Source: Escherichia phage Pollock
DNA length: 64,000 nucleotides
Sequence record: NC_027381.1
Direction: 5' to 3' (one strand)
Within the stretch, counting starts at the first letter, position 1. Every line of letters starts with the position of its first letter. A program made the translations under genes and the position numbers. The notes under the pieces are model-generated. The model had not been told where the DNA came from. It was given only the letters and a program-made list of their open reading frames with translations, and made no database searches. Below, in pieces: positions 10,079 through 24,028 of this stretch.

Positions 10079-10528
10079 ATGGGTTTATTTGGTTTTGGTA
10101 AGAAAAAAGTTAGTCAGAAAGTAGAACAAATGCGAGCTACCGCTGGAAAGATGGAAAATAAAGATATCGTTGAAGCAGGTATCGCTGTAATGGTTGGTGT
10201 AGCATTTGCAGATAAATCTTGCTCTGATGAAGAAATTGAAATTCTGGAAAATATCATTGAATCTGATGACACCTTTGCAGAATGGCGTTCTGAAACTCAG
10301 GCAATGACTAATAAATGGATAAGCAAATTCCAGAAATTCCATCGTGGTGCAATGATGGATTTGGAAAAAGAATTTAACGACCTGAAAGGAGACCCTGCTG
10401 GTCAGAAACGTGCTTTGCTGTGTGGTATTGCCGTAGCAGAAGATGATGAAGGCATGGGTGCAGAAGAAAAAGCTTTTCTTGAAAAAGTTGCAGGTTGGGC
10501 AGGCATCCGTTTGGATACTTTACTGTAA
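10079..10528 (+). CDS. TerB-like protein (tellurite-resistance TerB domain)
   Basis: Two-repeat architecture comparable to TerB: AGIAVMVGVAFADKSCSDEEIEILENII and ALLCGIAVAEDDEGMGAEEKAFLEKVA, length about 150 aa. Confidence 0.55.
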   Translation: MGLFGFGKKKVSQKVEQMRATAGKMENKDIVEAGIAVMVGVAFADKSCSDEEIEILENIIESDDTFAEWRSETQAMTNKWISKFQKFHRGAMMDLEKEFNDLKGDPAGQKRALLCGIAVAEDDEGMGAEEKAFLEKVAGWAGIRLDTLL

Positions 10529-11069: not shown

Positions 11070-11153
11070 ATGCGTCCTACAGCTATTAAAAAAGCTATTG
11101 AAAGAGCTTTTGCAGCAGGACTTGTTCCTTTTATTAAAGGTAGTCCGGGTATT
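11070..11153 (+). CDS. MoxR-like AAA+ ATPase, exon 1 (N4 gp24-like)
   Basis: Encodes MRPTAIKKAIERAFAAGLVPFIKGSPGI, ending in the first half of a Walker A motif (GSPGI) right before an in-frame TGA. Confidence 0.65.
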
Positions 11154-11543
11154 TGATTTTACAAGATACCCTAAGCAGTGATGCTTAGTAAAAAATCCCT
11201 TGAATTGCTGGAAACCCTTAAAGCTGAATTAACTACTGCGAGTTGAAAAACAAAGCCAATGTTTAAAAATAATTCAGATATGTAGGCAATCAGCAGCCAA
11301 GCTCCTAAGGTTTAGGATATTAAGCTATGGAGAAGGTTCAACGACTAGGCGTAAGCCGTACACTCAAGTGAGTGGAAGTGGGGGACTCTTTACAAACTTA
11401 CCACCATGGAATACCTTTTGTATTTGCAAAGAAAGGTCTATGTCGTAAATGTAGTAAAGATGAAGATATAGTCTCGTCTTATGTGAAAGCATAAGCTGTT
11501 TAATAAACAGAGGGTAGCTTAACGAACTACCCTGAAGATTACG
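11154..11543 (+). ncRNA. Group I intron, ORF-less (intron 1 of the MoxR-like ATPase gene)
   Basis: Contains td-type core elements: P-like AATTGCTGGAAA, Q-like AATCAGCAGCC, R-like GTTCAACGACTAG, S-like AAGATATAGTCT; 5-prime exon ends in U and intron ends in G; splicing restores Walker A GSPGIGKS. Confidence 0.7.
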
Positions 11544-11786
11544 GGTAAATCTGCAATTATTCGTCAAATTGCAAAAGAAGCTAAATTATTGGTTATTGAC
11601 CTTCGTTTAGGTCAATGTGACCCAACTGATTTATTGGGATTTCCAAATATTGAGAATGGACGGTCTGTATATCATCCACCAAAAGATATTCCAATTATTG
11701 GGGATGAAATTCCTAAAGGATATAACGGTTGGCTGTTATTCCTTGATGAAATGAATACAGCACCTAAAGCTGTTCAGGCTGCTGCT
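11544..11786 (+). CDS. MoxR-like AAA+ ATPase, exon 2
   Basis: Encodes GKSAIIRQIAKEAKLLVIDLRL...GWLLFLDEMNTAPKAVQAAA: Walker A completion plus Walker B LLFLDEMN, matching MoxR LLADEINRAPPKTQSALLE. Confidence 0.7.
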
Positions 11787-12630
11787 TAAATTAATAGGCA
11801 TTTATGGGGGAAACCTCATATCTAAAGCTACTTAAAACGGGGAACTCTTAGTAGTGTATATACACTAAAGACAATCCGTTGCTAAATAGGAATTAAGATG
11901 CAAGAAGTTTGGAAAGCTATTCCCGGATATGAGAAAGAATATGAAATTTCTACTCATGGACGGATTAAGAGTTTAGATAGAGTCGTTCCTTGTAAACATG
12001 GCACTCGCCTTGTTAAAGGAAAATTATTAAAAACCTATATTAATCGAAAAGGGTATTTAATTGTTACTTTATCTAAAGAAAATAAACTGAAAACATATAC
12101 CGTACATCAGTTAGTTGCTCTTACATTTATTCCAAATTTCATTAAAGGCACAGAAATTAATCATAAAGACGGTAATAAATCCAATCCAGTATTAGATAAT
12201 TTAGAAATTAGCAACCCTAGCCATAACCAGTTACATGCTATAGCTACAGGTCTTAAAGCAAAGGTTGGTAAGAGTAAATACCACAATGTAACTTACATTA
12301 AAAACCCACGGGCTAAGAAAAAGTGGGCTGCAAGTATAAGTTATAATGGGGAAAAATCTTTTGGATGGAAAACATTTATGACAGAAGAAGAAGCTGCAAG
12401 ATATGTAGATAAACTTCTTGATGAAATAGGTGATACTTCCCGTTTAAGAAATTTCTAATTAATTCCTTAAATGCCCAACGACTAGTCGAAAGACGTAGGC
12501 TCAAGTGAGTCGAAAAAGTAGCTCCCCAAACAAGTAAAGTTGTGGGGATTGATATAGTCTGCTCTATATAGAAATATATAGCTGGATTAATTATCCGGGT
12601 AATGATTAACGACCATTACTGAACATAAGG
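11787..12630 (+). mobile_element. Group I intron carrying an HNH homing endonuclease (intron 2 of the MoxR-like ATPase gene)
   Basis: R-like CAACGACTAG and S-like GATATAGTCT elements downstream of the HNH ORF; exon ends in U, intron ends in G; splicing yields AVQAAAYKLLDRMVGQT, matching MoxR QSALLEAMQERQVTIGGQT. Confidence 0.7.
11898..12458 (+). CDS. Intron-encoded HNH homing endonuclease
   Basis: N-terminal WKAIPGYEKEYEISTHGRIKS (NUMOD4-like), HNH core HQLVALTF...NHKDGNKSNPVLDNLE...HNQLH, C-terminal AP2-like WAASISYNGEKSFGWKTFMTEEEAARYVD. Confidence 0.8.
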   Translation: MQEVWKAIPGYEKEYEISTHGRIKSLDRVVPCKHGTRLVKGKLLKTYINRKGYLIVTLSKENKLKTYTVHQLVALTFIPNFIKGTEINHKDGNKSNPVLDNLEISNPSHNQLHAIATGLKAKVGKSKYHNVTYIKNPRAKKKWAASISYNGEKSFGWKTFMTEEEAARYVDKLLDEIGDTSRLRNF

Positions 12631-13320
12631 TATAAACTGTTGGACCGTATGGTAGGACAAACCAAATTACATCCTAGTGTTTATATTGCTGCTGCTGGTA
12701 ACAAAGATACAGATGGAGCAATTACTACTACTATGAGTAGTGCAACTCTATCTCGTATTGTTAGTATGGAACTAGAAGTTAACTTTAATGATTGGGCTGT
12801 ATGGGCATTAGCCAATAACATTGACCATCGCATCATGGGATATCTTCAGTTCAAACCAGAAGCATTCCATAAATTTGACCCTAAAAATCTTAAAGAACCT
12901 TTTCCATGCCCACGTACATGGGAGTTCATTAACCGTGCTATTAATGGATTAGATGTATCTTTAAATTCTGATTTGGGTTTATTGTCTGGAATTATTGGTA
13001 ATGGCACTGCTCGTGAATTTATTGAGTATTGTGCTATCTATGGTGAGATTGCTTCCTTTGAAGAAATTATGTCTAATCCAGAAAGCATTGTCATCAAAGA
13101 CAGACCAGACATTAAGTATGCATATGCTGGTTTTGTAGCTTCTCGCATTACCCCTGAAAATGCATCTCAATTAATGAAATTCATTAATCGACTGCCCGTT
13201 GAATTTCAGATTGTAACTTTGAGTAATGCTTTTAAAGCTAAACCTCTCATTTCTCAAGTTCCAGAAATAATGGAATGGATTACTCGTTATGCCAACGAGT
13301 CAGGTGAAGGGATGCTCTAA
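12631..13320 (+). CDS. MoxR-like AAA+ ATPase, exon 3
   Basis: Encodes YKLLDRMVGQTKLHPSVYIAAAGNKDTDGA..., the sensor and C-terminal region of an AAA_5/MoxR ATPase; an in-frame stop lies a few codons upstream of 12631. Confidence 0.7.
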   Translation, partial: YKLLDRMVGQTKLHPSVYIAAAGNKDTDGAITTTMSSATLSRIVSMELEVNFNDWAVWALANNIDHRIMGYLQFKPEAFHKFDPKNLKEPFPCPRTWEFINRAINGLDVSLNSDLGLLSGIIGNGTAREFIEYCAIYGEIASFEEIMSNPESIVIKDRPDIKYAYAGFVASRITPENASQLMKFINRLPVEFQIVTLSNAFKAKPLISQVPEIMEWITRYANESGEGML

Positions 13321-14434
13321 TAAGGAGTTTCCTATGGATAAGAATAAAGCACTGGATTTAGCCAAAGTAGATTTATTTGCCCGTAAACAAAATACTTTTA
13401 TTTGTTCCATCTTTTGCTCACTTCAGCTTAAGTGGGACGATACCATCCCTACAGCTTGTACTGATGGTTTGAGTATCTTGATAAATCCAGATTATTTTAT
13501 GGATTTACCACGTCCAATGCGAGTGACACTTCTTGCTCATGAGACGTGGCATGTTGCTTTAAAACATGTCTTAAGGGTTACGGGAAGAAATCCAAAATTA
13601 TGGAATTATGCTTGTGATTATTACATCAATAATATGCTTGATGATGCTAAGTATGTTATTGGTACTGGTTGGCTATTAGACCATCAGTATGATGGCATGA
13701 GTGCTCCAGAAATCTATAACAAGCTACAAAAATCCAGTAAAAACCTGCCTCAAAATTTATTAGGTATGGATATTAAACCCTGTCCTTCTTCATCAGAAGA
13801 AGCTATTGAATCACAAATTGATTCTATGCTTATTCGTGGCTCTATTGCTGCAAAGCAAGGAGGACAAGCTGGAAGTATCCCCGGAGATATCCAAGCATAT
13901 ATTGATGAGCTTCTGAATCCTAAATTACCTTGGAACGATATTCTCAGAAATTTTATTAATGAGATGACTCGTAATGACTACACTTGGGCTAAACCTAATA
14001 AACGGTATTTGCCTGATATTTATTTACCTTCTCTAAATTCTGAAGGTCTAGAACATATCATTTTTTATACTGATATTTCTGGTTCAGTATCTGATACACA
14101 ATTTGGTGTGTATATCAGTGAAATTCATGCAATTAAAACAACATTGAATCCAAAACGAATTACAGTATGTACGTTCGATACAAAGATTCATGAAGTGTAT
14201 GAATTAGAAGAAGGAGATGATATTAGTAAGTGTACGTTTACAGGTAGAGGAGGTACATCTCTTACTTGTGTGTATGAACATGCTAAGAAAGAGAAACCAG
14301 AACTCATCGTAATATTTTCTGATTTGGATTGTGCTCCAATGAAGGAACAACCTACACCTAATGTCATTTGGGTATGTTTGGACAATCCAACAAAAACAGT
14401 TGATTTTGGTCAACTGATTCATGTGAAAAGTTAA
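13289..14434 (+). CDS. VWA-domain protein with HExxH motif (MoxR partner; N4 gp25-like)
   Basis: HExxH-like LLAHETWHVALKH in the N-terminal half; MIDAS-like FYTDISGSVSD in the C-terminal half; sits directly downstream of the MoxR-like ATPase. Confidence 0.65.
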   Translation: MPTSQVKGCSNKEFPMDKNKALDLAKVDLFARKQNTFICSIFCSLQLKWDDTIPTACTDGLSILINPDYFMDLPRPMRVTLLAHETWHVALKHVLRVTGRNPKLWNYACDYYINNMLDDAKYVIGTGWLLDHQYDGMSAPEIYNKLQKSSKNLPQNLLGMDIKPCPSSSEEAIESQIDSMLIRGSIAAKQGGQAGSIPGDIQAYIDELLNPKLPWNDILRNFINEMTRNDYTWAKPNKRYLPDIYLPSLNSEGLEHIIFYTDISGSVSDTQFGVYISEIHAIKTTLNPKRITVCTFDTKIHEVYELEEGDDISKCTFTGRGGTSLTCVYEHAKKEKPELIVIFSDLDCAPMKEQPTPNVIWVCLDNPTKTVDFGQLIHVKS

Positions 14435-14516: not shown

Positions 14517-14921
14517 ATGTTTAATATTCATAAAGCTGTACGTGATGCAGCTAATTCTATGTACCCAAAGAAAATTAAAATGGAAGTACCAAGTAATCTT
14601 CCTTTATCTAATAACCGTTGTCATTACAACGCTGTACAAGCAGTTAAAAATAATTTAGCTGCTGGAATATTAGAAGTAGTTATTATTTATAAAAATGACT
14701 GTACAGTTCATTATGTAAATGTATTACCTAATGGTACTTGTGTAGATTTCACATTAGGAGTCATGTGTATAAATGATGATTATCGTTTTATACGTCATGT
14801 TTCTCCTAATGAATATGACACCATTAATAAAACTTTAAAAAATGCTAAGGATAAGTTATATGCTTCAACCCCTTGGTACATACAGAAATTAATAAAACTT
14901 TCTGGTAAAGATTGGTGTTAA
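14517..14921 (+). CDS. Hypothetical protein, 134 aa
   Basis: ORF; Cys-containing; no recognisable family. Confidence 0.45.
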   Translation: MFNIHKAVRDAANSMYPKKIKMEVPSNLPLSNNRCHYNAVQAVKNNLAAGILEVVIIYKNDCTVHYVNVLPNGTCVDFTLGVMCINDDYRFIRHVSPNEYDTINKTLKNAKDKLYASTPWYIQKLIKLSGKDWC

Positions 14922-15736
14922 TAATGAAAGAACAAGAACAACTTAGAAAAGATATTTCTCGTATCTTTTCAATCTTTAAAGCCAGTGAATGTAAATTACG
15001 TCCTCATTTCATTCTTACTGGAGAAAGTGGTACTGGAAAAACTTTCTTAATTAAGTCTTTAACTGAACAGCATAAAATGGATTATATTGAAATTAATGCT
15101 GCTCAGCTAACTAAAGAAGGTTTATCGGGAAATAGCTTAAGTAAGGCACTTGCTCCTTTACGCCAAGCTAATGGTAATCCTGTCATCTGTTTTGTAGATG
15201 AATTCGATAAATTATTTATCGCAGGGAATAACAATAGTGAATTAGCTCATGAATCTACCAATGGAGTTCAAAACGAATTCCTTAAGATTCTTGAATCTGA
15301 ATGTACTTCTGTATTTGGTGATTATGGTAAATATGTAGATGTTCCTGTAAATAATGTTCTATTTGTATTTGCAGGAGCATTCAATGGTGAACCAAATATC
15401 ACTTTAGATAAGCTACGTACTTTTGGTGTTAAAACTGAATTTTTAGGTCGTGTGGGTTTAGTTTATAACACTGTCAAAATTAGCTTAGAAAGTCTTATTC
15501 AAGTCTTAAAAGATTCAGACACTCTCACTATGTATCTGGATTTATTTCCAGAAGTTAAACGAGAGAAAGCCATCAAAGATATCTCAGCATTTATCAAAGA
15601 TAATTATGAGATGAATACTTTGGGTATTCGTATGGTTAATACGTTAATTACTCAATATTTCATTCAAGATGGAAAACTCACCCGAGATGAAGTTAAAACC
15701 AGTACTTTCCAAAATAAACTTAAATTTGGTGAGTAG
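14912..15736 (+). CDS. AAA+ ATPase, ClpX/HslU-like nucleotide-binding domain
   Basis: Walker A GESGTGKT; TKEGLSGNSL resembles ClpX TEAGYVGEDV; Walker B ICFVDEFDK resembles ClpX IDEIDK. Confidence 0.55.
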   Translation: MVLIMKEQEQLRKDISRIFSIFKASECKLRPHFILTGESGTGKTFLIKSLTEQHKMDYIEINAAQLTKEGLSGNSLSKALAPLRQANGNPVICFVDEFDKLFIAGNNNSELAHESTNGVQNEFLKILESECTSVFGDYGKYVDVPVNNVLFVFAGAFNGEPNITLDKLRTFGVKTEFLGRVGLVYNTVKISLESLIQVLKDSDTLTMYLDLFPEVKREKAIKDISAFIKDNYEMNTLGIRMVNTLITQYFIQDGKLTRDEVKTSTFQNKLKFGE

Positions 15737-15871
15737 TACGTCTAAATCTCCTATTGCATGGGATATCTTTCGTATCCCTTCAAAACATGTATGTCGAACC
15801 AAGAAACGCACTGTAGCCACTATTGCTCGTAATAAGGGTTATCGTGTGATTCCTGTGTTCGGAAGAAGTTA

Positions 15872-15888
15872 AAGCCCCTTCGGGGCTT
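15872..15888 (+). terminator. Hairpin, possible terminator or RNA processing site
   Basis: aagcccc-ttcg-gggctt perfect stem-loop but no clear T-run. Confidence 0.35.
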
Positions 15889-15966
15889 GCCTCGGAAAGA
15901 AAGAGGAATTAATCCTCTTCAAATTAAACTCTATTTTTAATCCCAATCTGAAAAGGTAAATGAAAA

Positions 15967-17409
15967 ATGGCTAAGACTCTTGAAAATGAAGAAAAGAAAG
16001 TTCACGTTGCTGACGTTGTTAAACACGGTGAGAAACTGATTCTCCCTGAAAACATGTCTATGTCTGATGCAATTGATTTGCTGAAGCGTCGTCAGAAGTA
16101 CGAAGAAGAAGAAGTAATTGTTCGTCGTACTTATAACGTATTCCCATGGGATGGTGCTCATGCACTGATGCTGGCTCTGACTGAACGTTATGGTTGGGCT
16201 GCTGCTGAAGCAACTCCGGGATTCTTTGGTTCTAACCCTCCGCAAATGCTGGATGTTCAGGTTGGTTATGGTCAAACCAAGAAAGTACCTTGGGGTCGTT
16301 TCTCTTTGCCTCAAGTAGATGGATTTGTTCAGTGCTCTGCACAGAAGAAAGATGGTCGTATTAGCTTTGAACTAGTTGGTAAAGTTCTGCGTAAAGACGA
16401 AAAGACCATCGAACTGCTATTTGATACTGTAGAAAAAACTCTGCGTACTAATTCCATTTATATGGGTCAGGCTATCAAAATTCGTTTCCGTGATAACGAT
16501 GGTGAACTGTTGGAAATGCCTGAACCAGAATTTATGGATTTACGTGGTATCAGCCGTAATTCTCTGGTTTATTCTGATGATGTTCAAAATCTGATTGAAA
16601 CTAATCTGTTTACTCCGATTGAGCGTGTAGCAGATTGCATCATCAATGAAATTCCAGTTAAACGTGGTGTACTGCTTGGTGGACCATATGGTACTGGTAA
16701 AACTATGGCTGCAACTGTTGCTGCTTCTCTGGCTACCAGCGTTGGTGTTACTTACGTATATGTACCTCGTTGTGATGAACTGTCTGATGCAATTCAGTTT
16801 GCTAAGCAGTATAGCGATAAAGCGTGTGTAATCTTCTGCGAAGATATTGACCGTGCTGTATCTGGTGAACGTAGTGTTAAGATGGATGACATCCTGAATA
16901 TTCTGGATGGTATTGATACTAAAACGTCTCGCATCATCACTGTTCTGACTACTAACCATCTGGAAAATATTAACCCAGCAATGCTGCGTCCGGGTCGTCT
17001 GGATGCAATCATTGATGTTACTCCGCCAGATGCTAAAGCAGTTGAAAAACTGGTACGTCTGTATGGTCGTGATACCATTGCTGCTGATGCAGACCTGACT
17101 CTGGTTGGTGAAGCTCTGGCAGGTACTATCCCTGCGGTAATTGCAGAAGTTGTTAAACGTGCTAAGTTGCACCAACTTCAGTATCAAGAGCCGGGTACTA
17201 TGATTAAAGAAATCAGTGGTCAAGCTCTGCTGGATTCTGCTCTGACTATTCAAGCACAGCGTAAGCTGCTGGAAGAACAGTCTAAACCAAAAGTTAAAGA
17301 ACCTACCTTTAACGAAACTATTGCTTCTGCCGTTGCTCCTGCAATTGAAGCTGCGGTAAGCAAAGTTACTAATCAGGTATCTGAACTGCACGAGCGCATC
17401 TGCGACTGA
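15967..17409 (+). CDS. AAA-family ATPase, 480 aa, codon usage suggests high expression
   Basis: Walker A GGPYGTGKT; Walker B VIFCEDIDR; second region of homology NPAMLRPGRLD typical of classic AAA proteins; strong preference for CTG, CGT and GGT codons unlike most neighbours. Confidence 0.65.
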   Translation: MAKTLENEEKKVHVADVVKHGEKLILPENMSMSDAIDLLKRRQKYEEEEVIVRRTYNVFPWDGAHALMLALTERYGWAAAEATPGFFGSNPPQMLDVQVGYGQTKKVPWGRFSLPQVDGFVQCSAQKKDGRISFELVGKVLRKDEKTIELLFDTVEKTLRTNSIYMGQAIKIRFRDNDGELLEMPEPEFMDLRGISRNSLVYSDDVQNLIETNLFTPIERVADCIINEIPVKRGVLLGGPYGTGKTMAATVAASLATSVGVTYVYVPRCDELSDAIQFAKQYSDKACVIFCEDIDRAVSGERSVKMDDILNILDGIDTKTSRIITVLTTNHLENINPAMLRPGRLDAIIDVTPPDAKAVEKLVRLYGRDTIAADADLTLVGEALAGTIPAVIAEVVKRAKLHQLQYQEPGTMIKEISGQALLDSALTIQAQRKLLEEQSKPKVKEPTFNETIASAVAPAIEAAVSKVTNQVSELHERICD

Positions 17410-17435
17410 ATCATATTCGTTAAGTGATTCTCTAA

Positions 17436-17460
17436 TAGCCCTTCAATGAGGGGCTATTTT
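17436..17460 (+). terminator. Rho-independent terminator
   Basis: tagccc-ttcaatga-ggggcta stem-loop followed by TTTT. Confidence 0.6.
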
Positions 17461-20516: not shown

Positions 20517-20761
20517 TGGATATCGCATTTGTAGTTTCCAAATTGATTGTTACAGAGTACACGTTGCTTAGACAATGGTGGCCTGAACAATTACGTCAAT
20601 CCAGATATGTAGATAATGGAATGACTAGAACTTACTTCTTAGATACACATCCATCCCCTGAACTTCAAGAACTCATAGAAGAGTTACATAAGTTTGGGAG
20701 AGAGTATCGACTTATAGATTTAAGAGGAGTGGAAATAGATAATGCGTCATATAATCTTTGA
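20516..20761 (+). CDS. Hypothetical protein, 81 aa
   Basis: ORF only. Confidence 0.4.
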   Translation: MDIAFVVSKLIVTEYTLLRQWWPEQLRQSRYVDNGMTRTYFLDTHPSPELQELIEELHKFGREYRLIDLRGVEIDNASYNL

Positions 20762-22688
20762 ACAAAATCAAAGATATCCAATCGCCATTCTTATTAAACC
20801 TCAACAACTAAAGAAGAAAGAGATATTAGAAGCTTATATCAATCCTACTGGAATCAAGCCAAATCAATTTATTGCATTTGACCTTGAGTACAATGGGAAA
20901 AAAGCTCCTGTATCTATGCAGAAAGACTATCTTAAAGTCTTACTACCAGAGCTTTGTAATTTAAGAACAGAATATATTCTGTGCTGTGATAGTGCATATT
21001 TCAAAACCTTAACCAAGCAATCTAAAGCAGAACCTCATTGTGGTTATGTATTGCCTTGTGTCATTCCTGGTTTTGAACATCTAAATATTATTTTCTGTCC
21101 TAATTATGCTCAGATTTTCTATGACCCTTCTGTACAGGATAAAGTTAATCTGGCTCTCAAAGTTCTAGTAGATAAGGTAAATGGTCAATACCAAGAGATT
21201 GGTAAGAACATTATCCATACTGCTTACTATCCTTCTACAGTTGAAGAAATTGAAGCTTGGCTTGAATCTCTACATCAATATCCAATTCTAGCTTCAGATA
21301 TAGAGGCATTTAGTCTTAAATTCTATAAAGCAGGTGTAGGTACTATTGGATTTGCATGGGACCAACACAATGGAGGAGCATTCGCTGTTGATTATACGAA
21401 TGAACCAGACAAGGCTGAAAGAATTAGGCAGGCTCTTAAGAAGTTTTTTGAAACTTATGAAGGCAAACTGATTTGGCATAACTCAAGTTATGACTTAACA
21501 GTGCTTATTTACCAGCTTTGGATGAATGGTTTAGTAGACCAAAAAGGATTGCTTAAGGGTTTGCACATCATGTGTCGTAATTTTCACGATACTAAGATTG
21601 TGACATATCTGGCTACAAACTCTTGTGCAGGTAATGAGTTAGGGCTAAAAGCTCAAGCTCATGAATTTGCAGGAAACTATGCACAAGAAGATATTGATGA
21701 TATTACTAAAATCCCATTACCAGACCTTCTGGAGTACAACTTAATTGACTGTCTAAGTACTTGGTATGTTGCAGACAAACATGCAGATACTATGGTATTG
21801 GATGAACAATGGGAAATTTATAATACTCTGATGTTACCTTCGCTGAAGAATATTATTCAGATGCAATTAACTGGTATGCCTATTGATATGGCAGAGGTTA
21901 AGAAGGTTAAAGCAGAAATGATTAAAGAGCGAGATGGTTATCTTAGAGCCATCAAGTCATTTGCAGTAGTAGATTTGTTAGTTAACAACCTACGTAAACA
22001 ACATGTTGCTACTAGAAATGCTACGCTCAAAACCAAGCAAATTACAATGTCTGATGAGGAGACATTAGCAATAGAGTTTAATCCAAACTCTAACCCTCAA
22101 ATGCAGGAACTTTTGTATGAAATTATGGGATTACCTGTAATTGATTTAACTGATTCTAAGCAGCCTGCTACTGGTGCAGATACTCTAGAAAAGTTAATTC
22201 ATCATACAGATGATGATAGACAGAAAAAGATTCTTGAATGCCTTATTAAATATTCTAAGGTAGAAAAAATTCTTTCTGCATTTATACCTGCATTCGAAGA
22301 AGCACCTTTAGCTGAAGATGGTACTCATTATTTATTCGGAAGCTATAACTTAGGTGGTACTGTATCTGGTCGTTTGAGTTCATCAAAACCAAACATGCAA
22401 CAAATTCCTTCCTCTAAGAGTCCTTACGCCAAACCTATAAAACGATGTTTTAAAGCTGGTAAAGGTTGGCTTCTTATTGGATTAGATTTTGCATCTCTTG
22501 AAGACCGTATTTCTGCTCTAACAACCAAAGACCCTAATAAATTGAAAGTGTATATGGGGGTGAATGTTTATACGGTTACTATAGAGGGGGTTGACCATCA
22601 TATTCGAGATGACGATACAATCATTTATGATGGTAAAACTTACACTGGTGAAGAGTTCTATGATGCTTTTACCTGTGGCCTTCTATGA
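20742..22688 (+). CDS. Family A DNA polymerase, N-terminal segment (3-prime to 5-prime exonuclease domain through polymerase motif A)
   Basis: Pol I-type motifs SGRLSSSKPNMQQIP and motif A LDFASLEDR; the ORF then runs about 45 codons further to a stop; motifs B and C lie in a different frame downstream of an HNH ORF. Confidence 0.8.
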   Translation: MRHIIFEQNQRYPIAILIKPQQLKKKEILEAYINPTGIKPNQFIAFDLEYNGKKAPVSMQKDYLKVLLPELCNLRTEYILCCDSAYFKTLTKQSKAEPHCGYVLPCVIPGFEHLNIIFCPNYAQIFYDPSVQDKVNLALKVLVDKVNGQYQEIGKNIIHTAYYPSTVEEIEAWLESLHQYPILASDIEAFSLKFYKAGVGTIGFAWDQHNGGAFAVDYTNEPDKAERIRQALKKFFETYEGKLIWHNSSYDLTVLIYQLWMNGLVDQKGLLKGLHIMCRNFHDTKIVTYLATNSCAGNELGLKAQAHEFAGNYAQEDIDDITKIPLPDLLEYNLIDCLSTWYVADKHADTMVLDEQWEIYNTLMLPSLKNIIQMQLTGMPIDMAEVKKVKAEMIKERDGYLRAIKSFAVVDLLVNNLRKQHVATRNATLKTKQITMSDEETLAIEFNPNSNPQMQELLYEIMGLPVIDLTDSKQPATGADTLEKLIHHTDDDRQKKILECLIKYSKVEKILSAFIPAFEEAPLAEDGTHYLFGSYNLGGTVSGRLSSSKPNMQQIPSSKSPYAKPIKRCFKAGKGWLLIGLDFASLEDRISALTTKDPNKLKVYMGVNVYTVTIEGVDHHIRDDDTIIYDGKTYTGEEFYDAFTCGLL

Positions 22689-23205
22689 ACAACGGTATAA
22701 GATTTTTGATGAAGGTTTCATCTTAAATCTTGCAAACAATCAACTCCTAAAACCAATTCTCAATTCTAATGGATACCTTAAAGTTGGATTAGCTAATGGT
22801 GATGGTACTCATCATCAAGAGCTACTTCATATTCTGGTAGCTAAACACTTCATTCTAAATCCTTATGGCTACAAACAGGTAAACCATAAAGATGGTAATA
22901 AACTGCATTGCCATAAGGACAATCTGGAATTGTGTTCTGCTACTCAGAACGTCAAACATGCATTTAAAACAGGACTACGCCCCGGTTATATGTCTGCTGA
23001 TGATAAAGAGAAATATCTCTTTGAGGTACTAGCAGGCAAGCAAGTTAAGGACATTGCTTTTGAAATAGGCAGACGTCCTGAAACTCTGCACAAGATGCTT
23101 AGAATCACTGCTGACCGACTTGGTATCCGAAATGAATGGGACGATGTTATGAGGAGAAATAGAAAAGATGTTGCTTTACGACAGCTTGCCAAAATCAACT
23201 CATGA
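22591..23205 (+). CDS. HNH homing endonuclease inserted in the DNA polymerase gene (true start probably downstream of 22591)
   Basis: HNH_3-type core NGYLKVGLANGDGTHHQELLHILVAKHF...VNHKDGNKLHCHKDNLE...NVKH; paralogous to the intron-encoded HNH at 11898. Confidence 0.7.
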   Translation: MTIIFEMTIQSFMMVKLTLVKSSMMLLPVAFYEQRYKIFDEGFILNLANNQLLKPILNSNGYLKVGLANGDGTHHQELLHILVAKHFILNPYGYKQVNHKDGNKLHCHKDNLELCSATQNVKHAFKTGLRPGYMSADDKEKYLFEVLAGKQVKDIAFEIGRRPETLHKMLRITADRLGIRNEWDDVMRRNRKDVALRQLAKINS

Positions 23206-24028
23206 CTTCACTGGCAAGAAAATTGACAACGTAGTCAAGGCTGGTAATTCGTCAGGGTATGATGGTCATAGTTTGAGGGCATTTGCTTACTTTGGCGACC
23301 AGATGCCTGATATTGTAGATACTGTGGAAAGTATCAATAGTATTCAGGAATTATATAAGGACTTTAGACAAGACTCTAAAGCTCCTACTTTTGCATTAAC
23401 TTATCAAGGTACTTATCACACATTAATGGCTAACTGTGGTTTCCCAGAGGATAAAGCCAAAATGGTTGAGAAGAGGTATCACGAACTCTACTTCGTATCT
23501 GACCAATGGGTAAACGCTAAATTAACTCAAGCCAGTAAAGATGGATATATCACTGCTGCATTTGGATTAAGAATCCGTACTCCATTACTTAAAAATGTTG
23601 TCTGGGGAATTAAACAAACTCCTTATGAAGCTAAAGCTGAAGGCAGAACTGCTGGAAATGCTTTAGGTCAATCATGGTGTTTATTAAATAACAGGGCAGC
23701 AAATGAATTTATGGAACGAGTATGGAATTCTCCATACGCATATGTAATTAAACCATGTGCTCAAATCCATGATGCTCAATATTATCTGGTTCCAGATAAC
23801 ATCGACATTGTTCATTGGGTTAATGAAAATTTAGTCGAATGTATTGAGTGGCAAAACCATCCTGATATTTATCACGATAAAGTGAAATTAGGAGGGGAAT
23901 TAAGCGTCTTTTATCCATCATGGGCTAATGATATTTCATTGAAAAATGGAGCCTCTAAAGAGGAAATCTTAAGCACATGTGAAATTGGATTAGATAAGTA
24001 TCTTTACCCGGAGAAATATAAAAAATGA
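23168..24028 (+). CDS. Family A DNA polymerase, C-terminal segment (motifs B and C)
   Basis: DGHSLRAFAYFG (Pol I DIHRATAAEVFG), motif B RQDSKAPTFALTYQG (Pol I RRSAKAINFGLIYG), motif C CAQIHDAQ (Pol I VHDE); GAGGAG lies about 10 nt upstream of ATG 23168. Confidence 0.8.
   Translation: MLLYDSLPKSTHDFTGKKIDNVVKAGNSSGYDGHSLRAFAYFGDQMPDIVDTVESINSIQELYKDFRQDSKAPTFALTYQGTYHTLMANCGFPEDKAKMVEKRYHELYFVSDQWVNAKLTQASKDGYITAAFGLRIRTPLLKNVVWGIKQTPYEAKAEGRTAGNALGQSWCLLNNRAANEFMERVWNSPYAYVIKPCAQIHDAQYYLVPDNIDIVHWVNENLVECIEWQNHPDIYHDKVKLGGELSVFYPSWANDISLKNGASKEEILSTCEIGLDKYLYPEKYKK

Follow-up and report, generated by a model that had tools for sequence, protein, structure and literature searches.

What do two neighbouring AAA+ ATPase genes, one of them written in strongly host-preferred codons, do for Escherichia phage Pollock? 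The question is raised by a stretch of 64,000 nucleotides of sequence record NC_027381.1, which was analysed as a whole and is called the window below. At the DNA level the region shares 84% identity with Shigella phage B2 and with Salmonella phage FSL SP-058, and ~81% with Klebsiella phage Pylas; like these, the window is an N4-like podophage of the Schitoviridae. Two open reading frames (ORFs) are at issue, both on the plus strand, as are all features described here unless stated otherwise. ORF A (14924..15736, phrog_5534) encodes a stand-alone ATPase of 270 aa from the ClpX/HslU clade. ORF B (15967..17409, phrog_10440) encodes 480 aa, in which a family-specific N-terminal domain precedes a classic AAA domain that is probably of the Bcs1/YjoB type. 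The original prediction had described a ClpX/HslU-like ATPase and a classic AAA protein at these places, and the matches to Pfam AAA and, in the PDB, to ClpX and to p97/Cdc48 bear out both identities. It had also proposed that ORF B is an abundant unfoldase. The analysis reported here supports the abundance and points to another kind of machine, namely a soluble, chambered chaperone that would not thread its substrates. To this mechanism as a whole we assign a probability of roughly 45%.

As judged from its motifs and hydropathy, ORF B is a soluble, single-domain ATPase of the classic AAA clade. Pfam recognizes a single AAA domain at residues 235-351 (8e-16), and the best sequence matches in the PDB are to p97/Cdc48 (~2e-25). 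The family alignment comprises 38 sequences that are 59-92% identical to ORF B and conserved over the whole length. In these sequences, G242, T243, G244, K245 and T246 of the Walker A motif GGPYGTGKT (16678..16704, residues 238-246) are invariant. Sensor-1 and the second region of homology (16954..16998) contain N330 and the arginine fingers R341 and R344 in NPAMLRPGRLD, which are also invariant and align with PALLRPGRLD of p97. Because Walker A, sensor-1 and the arginine fingers never vary, an active ATPase of the classic clade would be expected. No transmembrane segment was found in ORF B, the maximum 19-residue hydropathy of 1.57 falling within a helix of the AAA lid. The C-terminal extension (17218..17406) comprises two long helices (residues 418-439 and 448-479) around a conserved QSKPK..EPTF motif.

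Two features of this AAA domain depart from the canonical classic pattern. In the Walker B motif VIFCED (16828..16845, residues 288-293), ED replaces DE, and C291, E292 and D293 are invariant in the 38 sequences; the ED is also kept in distant, longer relatives. At the position where canonical classic AAA proteins have pore loop 1, ORF B has the short turn PRC (16765..16773, residues 267-269), and its alignments to p97, NVL and Rix7 need gaps of 5-7 residues there. Both departures have been described before. YjoB and Bcs1 "exceptionally contain an ED sequence" in Walker B and yet are active ATPases (PMC9565160). Bcs1 is without the pore loop that contacts the substrate in hand-over-hand threading (PMC7994207), and in the Bcs1/YjoB group these exceptions go with action on folded proteins (PMC9565160, PMC7994207). 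Since an ED Walker B and the absence of a canonical pore loop 1 are the published marks of this branch, ORF B probably belongs to the Bcs1/YjoB branch of the classic AAA proteins.

Structural comparison leads in the same direction. The best structural match of ORF B is YjoB of Bacillus subtilis (PDB 7w42), which is likewise soluble, has an ED Walker B and has been described as a chambered holdase (Kwon et al. 2022, PMC9565160). In Foldseek searches against viral models, many proteins annotated as BCS1 match ORF B over nearly the full length. BCS1 orthologues, ClpX-like proteins and MoxR-vWA-peptidase pairs had already been noted in phages, BCS1 in jumbo phages (PMC7824862). One phage BCS1, gp242 of Tenacibaculum phage pT24, passes the Pfam BCS1_N cut-off (33.3 against 28.1 bits). 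When it is compared with ORF B, ED stands opposite ED, the pore-loop region requires a gap of at most one residue, and the AAA domains share 29% identity over 169 residues (hhalign probability 97%). ORF B differs from Bcs1 in having neither a BCS1_N domain, by Pfam and hhalign, nor a transmembrane anchor. Bcs1 itself sits in a membrane as a heptamer and carries the folded Rieske protein to the other side, whereas ORF B gives no sign of associating with membranes.

The best-surviving rival, rather unlikely in our view, would make ORF B a threading unfoldase or segregase of the conventional p97/FtsH/PAN kind, abundant and engaged in pulling host complexes apart. Its best sequence matches are AAA domains of p97/Cdc48, PAN and FtsH, its catalytic motifs are intact, and its codon usage points to high expression. 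However, the pore-loop-1 segment is deleted, Walker B is invariantly ED, and YjoB as the top structural match points to the non-threading type; ORF B is probably not a threading unfoldase, and the unfoldase reading of the original prediction is supported only in part. ORF B also has no protease domain and no second AAA domain, and its NCBIfam scores of 44-63 bits are far below cut-offs of 500-1008 (63 against 803 for CDC48 and 44 against 600 for FtsH).

Several known proteins were considered as identities for ORF B and rejected. For FtsH, Pfam detected the AAA domain alone, with no M41 peptidase, no transmembrane helices were found, and the score of 44 bits compares with cut-offs of 600 and 1008; the common ground is a generic classic AAA domain. 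Cdc48/p97 proper has tandem D1-D2 domains, whereas ORF B has one AAA domain and a score of 63.2 bits where the cut-off is 802.65. The GenBank labels of ORF B orthologues (metalloprotease, FtsH, cell division protein, 26S proteasome subunit) are over-calls. ORF B was not assigned to antiviral defence either, as PADLOC gave weak similarity to IetA and TRIP13 (47.7 bits) of the same kind as generic AAA matches.

The N-terminal domain of ORF B (15967..16566, ~residues 1-200) appears in the predicted structures, all of which are models of the monomer, as an alpha+beta fold in which three helices accompany an antiparallel sheet of five strands. No sequence match to it was found in the PDB by profile search (E up to 10) or in Pfam (E up to 10). 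In hhalign it does not align to BCS1_N, and a comparison of the family profile with phage BCS1 aligned the AAA domain alone. Its most conserved stretch is GWAAAEATPGFFGSNPP (16192..16242, residues 76-92), with the pattern GWAAAE-TPGFFG--PP, in which T83, P84, F87, G88, P91 and P92 are invariant. The stretch is predicted to be an exposed loop, at which the model confidence (predicted local distance difference test, pLDDT) dips, and it is a candidate loop for contact with the substrate or within the ring.

The family defined by this domain is very large. A profile search with the N-terminal domain retrieved at least 1336 cluster representatives (clusters at 50% identity), 537 of them at E <= 1e-30. 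Most are 470-520 aa long, and these lengths suggest the same architecture for most members. PHROG 10440, to which the ORF B family corresponds, is labelled "unknown function", and neither a Pfam model nor a solved structure exists for this large family. Longer relatives of 600-926 aa carry extra N-terminal extensions, in which no Pfam domain and no functional clue were found.

The codon usage of ORF B was said in the original prediction to depart strongly from the genome norm toward codons of highly expressed genes, and this departure is confirmed and strong. Its codon adaptation index (CAI) for E. coli is 0.546, the top value among the 64 ORFs of the window, followed by a TerB-like protein (0.496), the major head (capsid) protein (0.475) and the single-stranded DNA-binding protein SSB (0.455). 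The remaining genes of at least 100 codons have a mean of 0.279, a standard deviation of 0.075 and a maximum of 0.496. Recoding the ORF B protein with window-average codon frequencies gives a CAI of 0.268 +/- 0.015, from which the actual gene stands off at z = 18.2. The chi-square departure from the rest of the window is largest for ORF B (353). On the first principal component of relative synonymous codon usage (31% of variance), ORF B is the extreme, the major head protein comes next and SSB lies on the same axis. CTG accounts for 75% of its leucine codons (10% elsewhere), CGT for 92% of arginine and GGT for 89% of glycine, while AGA (38% elsewhere), ATA, ACA, TCA, GTG, GTC, GGC, GGG, CGG, TCG and CCC are not used at all.

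This bias is not confined to the window. The Pylas orthologue has a CAI of 0.643, against 0.15-0.44 for its neighbours. Of 63 related loci from IMG/VR, 47 could be analysed for codon bias by comparison with genes no shorter than 150 codons that lie within 6 kb. The effective number of codons (Nc) of ORF B was the lowest nearby in 26 of these and among the top two in 39. As the codon choices are host-optimal and not merely GC-rich, the pattern is one of translational selection and not a simple GC shift. Very probably, then, ORF B is highly expressed. The original prediction was reasonable on this point, as the codons are host-optimal, the shift has the same direction as in the capsid and SSB genes, and it recurs in orthologues of many lineages.

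The same bias could have another origin, that is, recent horizontal acquisition from a GC-richer phage without any relation to expression. The family is highly mobile, with members 58-68% identical in GC-rich Pseudomonas and Paracoccus phages, and at every locus examined the G+C content at third codon positions (GC3) is higher in ORF B than in the genes around it. Nevertheless, enrichment among the G/C-ending codons is confined to those that are host-optimal (CTG, CCG, CAG, ATC, ACC, AGC), and optimal codons ending in T (CGT, GGT, GCT, GTT, ACT, TCT) dominate the gene. The bias also parallels that of the capsid and SSB genes of the phage itself, and it is seen again in lineages of very different GC content, GC-rich ones included, which repeated fresh transfers would not explain. 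Acquisition as the cause of the bias is for these reasons improbable.

Two further observations belong to codon usage. A 283-aa ORF on the minus strand within ORF B (16540..17391) was rejected as a gene and regarded as a by-product of the codon bias, since TTA, CTA and TCA codons are nearly absent from ORF B and the antisense frame thereby stays open; in 14 related loci it is uninterrupted over the full length of the gene. The TerB-like "tellurite resistance" protein (10079..10528, phrog_632, 149 aa), whose CAI is the second highest of the window and exceeds that of the major head protein, is suggested by its codons to be another abundant non-structural protein.

The mechanism to which these data point can be outlined as follows. 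ORF B would be made in very large amounts in infected cells and would assemble into a ring, with the ring of N-terminal domains capping the AAA ring. By analogy with YjoB and Bcs1, folded or near-native clients might be bound in or at the resulting chamber, and hydrolysis of ATP would release or move them with no threading of unfolded chains. The abundance suggests that ORF B acts stoichiometrically rather than catalytically. As the gene travels by itself and no neighbour is conserved, its client would more likely be a conserved host protein, or phage proteins in general, than one particular phage protein dedicated to it.

Several points weigh against the chambered chaperone. Plain sequence searches rank p97, Cdc48, PAN/proteasomal ATPases and FtsH above Bcs1 and YjoB for the AAA domain of ORF B, and even a query of the 88 residues around Walker A and B is topped in the PDB by NVL, Rix7, p97 and Rpt proteins. 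The ring, the chamber and the oligomeric state are putative, the predicted structures being models of the monomer, and the client and biological role are purely inferred. Codon bias is indirect evidence of abundance, and the GC3 of ORF B is higher than that of its neighbours in 47 of 47 loci, so that a partly non-translational cause is possible. A literature search found no functional, transcriptomic or proteomic data for the ORF A or ORF B families.

If ORF B is a chambered chaperone, it must next be asked whether it works alone. The original prediction had noted that a MoxR-VWA pair lies upstream, and three AAA+ genes, MoxR included, do lie within ~6.3 kb on one strand. The MoxR-like ATPase gene (11070..13320; N4 gp24-like, phrog_1297) is followed by its partner, a DUF2201 metallopeptidase and VWA-like protein (13289..14434; N4 gp25-like; Pfam DUF2201_N 7.6e-43, DUF2201 7.3e-25). 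It could be supposed from this arrangement that the MoxR-VWA/metallopeptidase genes, ORF A and ORF B form one proteostasis or virion-assembly module. According to a proposal by Iyer et al., MoxR-vWA-peptidase pairs, BCS1 and ClpX of phages have a part in virion assembly (PMC7824862). In phage LIT1, where the counterparts of MoxR and VWA are labelled N4 gp24-like and gp25-like, ORF A is encoded just upstream of them.

A joint module is, however, hard to reconcile with the distribution of the genes and we consider it very unlikely. The ORFs within 6 kb of ORF B were clustered over 63 loci, and no neighbour common across lineages was found; the MoxR cluster is present at 13 loci, the VWA cluster at 11 and ORF A at 7, essentially all of them N4-like. 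Neighbourhoods were listed for 15 lineages, and nearly all neighbours are unique to one of them. ORF A is found without ORF B in T5-like, Queuovirinae and Vibrio phages, and the two families differ in their distributions, with 208 phage records for ORF A and 96 for ORF B. In the window, ORF B stands between hairpins and a terminator-like element of its own, and the genes are in the replication block and not in the structural block. ORF A, ORF B and the MoxR-VWA pair are not a conserved unit; the first two are independent accessory AAA+ genes. The three-ATPase cluster noted in the original prediction is a lineage-specific juxtaposition and not a system or functional unit.

The ORF B family is present in N4-like phages, KPP25-like podophages, myophage PhiW-14, phage contigs of ~45 kb and Salmonella contigs of ~100 kb, and relatives with ~30% identity are found in Gordonia and Mycobacterium phages. 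A 68,365-bp contig in IMG/VR encodes a protein 100% identical to ORF B of the window. Two Salmonella contigs (~51-100 kb) contain a homologue that is 65% identical to ORF B. Its neighbours there are genes for an HU-like protein, a DUF3799 protein, SSB, a helicase and a primase, together with a gene that weakly matches Rep3_N, and these contigs suggest a phage-plasmid-like element.

ORF A has to be considered separately. The listed start was TTG 14912, and the ATG at 14924 is the likelier one because residue 5 is where the PHROG profile sets in and the annotation of the Pylas orthologue starts at the equivalent ATG; the original prediction placed both ORFs correctly in all other respects. ORF A matches Pfam AAA (4.4e-14) and AAA_2, its best sequence matches in the PDB are to ClpX (2.6e-14), and NCBIfam ClpX is found at 1.5e-17. 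The ClpX models give scores of 63.6 bits (cut-off 359) and 54.6 bits (cut-off 370.75), below the equivalog cut-offs, and the HslU cut-off in NCBIfam is likewise far above the score of ORF A. An alignment of 26 family sequences shows a complete AAA+ core of the HCLR type, in which K39, D92-E93, the F149-N154 motif, R176 and R236 are invariant and align to ClpX. The Walker A motif GESGTGKT (15020..15043, residues 33-40 counted from ATG 14924) has invariant G33, S35, G36 and K39. The Walker B motif FVDE (15191..15202, residues 90-93) is invariant and aligns with IDEIDK/IDQVDK of ClpX. Sensor-1 FAGAFN, the arginine finger in EFLGR and the sensor-2 arginine do not vary either. ClpX shares with ORF A the Walker A and B motifs, sensor-1 FAGAF, the arginine finger in EFLGR and the sensor-2 arginine.

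Compared with ClpX, which has ~420 residues, the 270-aa ORF A is without several parts or has them in altered form. The segment opposite the GYVG pore-1 loop of ClpX reads EGLSGNS (15116..15136) and has no aromatic residue; in the HMMER alignment, GLSG of ORF A faces GYVG. The family pattern at this position is EG[T/L/V/I]SGNS, never aromatic, and the flanking LTKEG-x-SGNSLSKAL is invariant in the 26 sequences, so that G[L/T]SG takes the place of GYVG. The RKH loop is shortened. No counterpart of the IGF loop, with which ClpX docks to ClpP, was found in ORF A; ~27 residues including this loop are missing, and ClpX residues ~207-233 of 8yd0 remain unmatched between the aligned stretches. No C4 zinc-binding domain was found either, as ORF A has ~30 residues before Walker A and no cluster of cysteines. 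The original prediction, which had seen neither a protease partner nor a substrate-recognition domain, was correct for ORF A in this regard. Its codon usage is ordinary (CAI 0.258). From these motifs, ORF A can be regarded as a stripped-down and probably protease-independent member of the ClpX/HslU clade.

The ORF A family is also present in LIT1-like N4 phages, the T5-like Proteus phage PM135, Vibrio and Alteromonas siphophages and Queuovirinae. In PM135 and other unrelated phages, its neighbours are genes for RNase H, thymidylate synthase, ligase and SSB, and this repeated placement in unrelated phages suggests a role in replication or nucleotide metabolism. ORF A is most likely a remodelling ATPase that works without a protease and is tied to a replication/nucleotide-metabolism module, although this assignment is weakly supported. 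Two relatives, P0127 (333 aa) and P0215 (340 aa), have N-terminal extensions, and that of P0127 contains a cysteine-rich CxxC...C...C stretch resembling a zinc ribbon. Parts of the family may thus keep, or may have regained, a ClpX-like zinc module.

That one or both ORFs are replication AAA+ factors, such as an initiator, a helicase loader or a clamp-loader-like protein, is a poor explanation, for although in several unrelated phages both genes have neighbours that serve replication, recombination and nucleotide metabolism, and ORF A has weak clamp loader/RFC matches (PHROG 5e-8, NCBIfam 2e-6), neither ORF has the full-length similarity to RFC or gamma/tau subunits that would mark the conserved clamp-loader-like proteins with which the original prediction had contrasted its proposal.

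The sequences that flank ORF B fit a self-contained cassette. The 230-bp spacer on its 5' side contains two hairpins, for which a terminator, a processing site or a promoter element are candidate roles. Hairpin 1 (15872..15888) has a 7-bp stem and a UUC (pyrimidine) loop, and in Pylas it shows a compensatory change from C-G to G-C. Hairpin 2 (15901..15919) is formed by AAGAGGA and UCCUCUU, and Pylas keeps a hairpin there in a changed register. Neither is followed by a run of T. Directly 3' of ORF B there is a terminator-like hairpin (17434..17458) of 11 pairs followed by T-rich sequence, and a terminator is annotated at the same place in Pylas. A scan for sigma-70 promoters gave fewer sites than expected by chance, and none was found upstream of ORF B.

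Two small ORFs adjoin ORF A. A 134-aa ORF (14517..14921, phrog_6596) ends 3 nt before the ATG of ORF A and may be translationally coupled with it; it is not kept beside ORF A in the other phage lineages examined. A basic ORF of 67 aa (15669..15872) runs in a different frame across the 3' end of ORF A and stops exactly at hairpin 1. Its DNA is conserved and a counterpart is annotated in Pylas (Pylas_041), its status as a gene being uncertain.

Upstream, the MoxR-like gene appears to consist of three exons separated by two group I introns. Intron 1 (Rfam RF00028, 101 bits, 11143..11495) is inserted in the Walker A codons, and inferred splicing at T11153 and G11543 restores the motif GSPGIGKS, joined between GSPGI and GKS. 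Intron 2 (~11788..12628) is represented by two sub-threshold pieces of RF00028 and contains an ORF for an HNH/NUMOD4 homing endonuclease (11898..12458). The Pylas annotation gives one intron only in this gene.

In the window as a whole, a plus-strand block at ~8-31 kb holds genes for dUTPase, helicase, DNA polymerase A, thymidylate synthase, a Sak4-like protein and SSB, and the structural genes lie together with the gene for the giant virion RNA polymerase in a minus-strand block. This division places ORF A and ORF B in the replication (middle-gene) block. The DNA polymerase A region of the window consists of two ORFs (20742..22688 and 23168..24028) with ~480 bp between them. In Pylas, polA is annotated as split by an HNH intron; no Rfam intron was found at the gathering threshold in the window at 20742..24028.

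Genes for ORF A and ORF B had been annotated in related phage genomes before, though badly, and the annotation of both ATPases is corrected here. What is new is the recognition of ORF B as a soluble AAA protein of the Bcs1/YjoB type with an N-terminal domain of its own, as a member of a very large unnamed family, and as the representative of a family that is consistently the most codon-optimised gene of its neighbourhood, ahead of capsid and SSB. To our knowledge, very few AAA machines of the Bcs1/YjoB type, which act on folded proteins without threading, have been characterised. A phage version that is soluble, easy to express and open to assay through a clear infection phenotype would offer a tractable model of this type and could reveal a general step of takeover or assembly.

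If ORF B is as abundant as its codons imply, infected cells fill with a phage AAA+ protein that is ~60% identical across unrelated phages and mislabelled in databases. We tentatively suggest that members of the ORF B family are very abundant, soluble, chambered and non-threading AAA chaperones in many phage lineages, produced stoichiometrically so that folded proteins can be held, sequestered or passed on. If this is true, their client would be either a conserved host factor, in takeover or anti-defence, or the phage's own bulk proteins, and the family would represent a class of phage chaperones with an importance like that of T4 gp31 and a mechanism like that of Bcs1.

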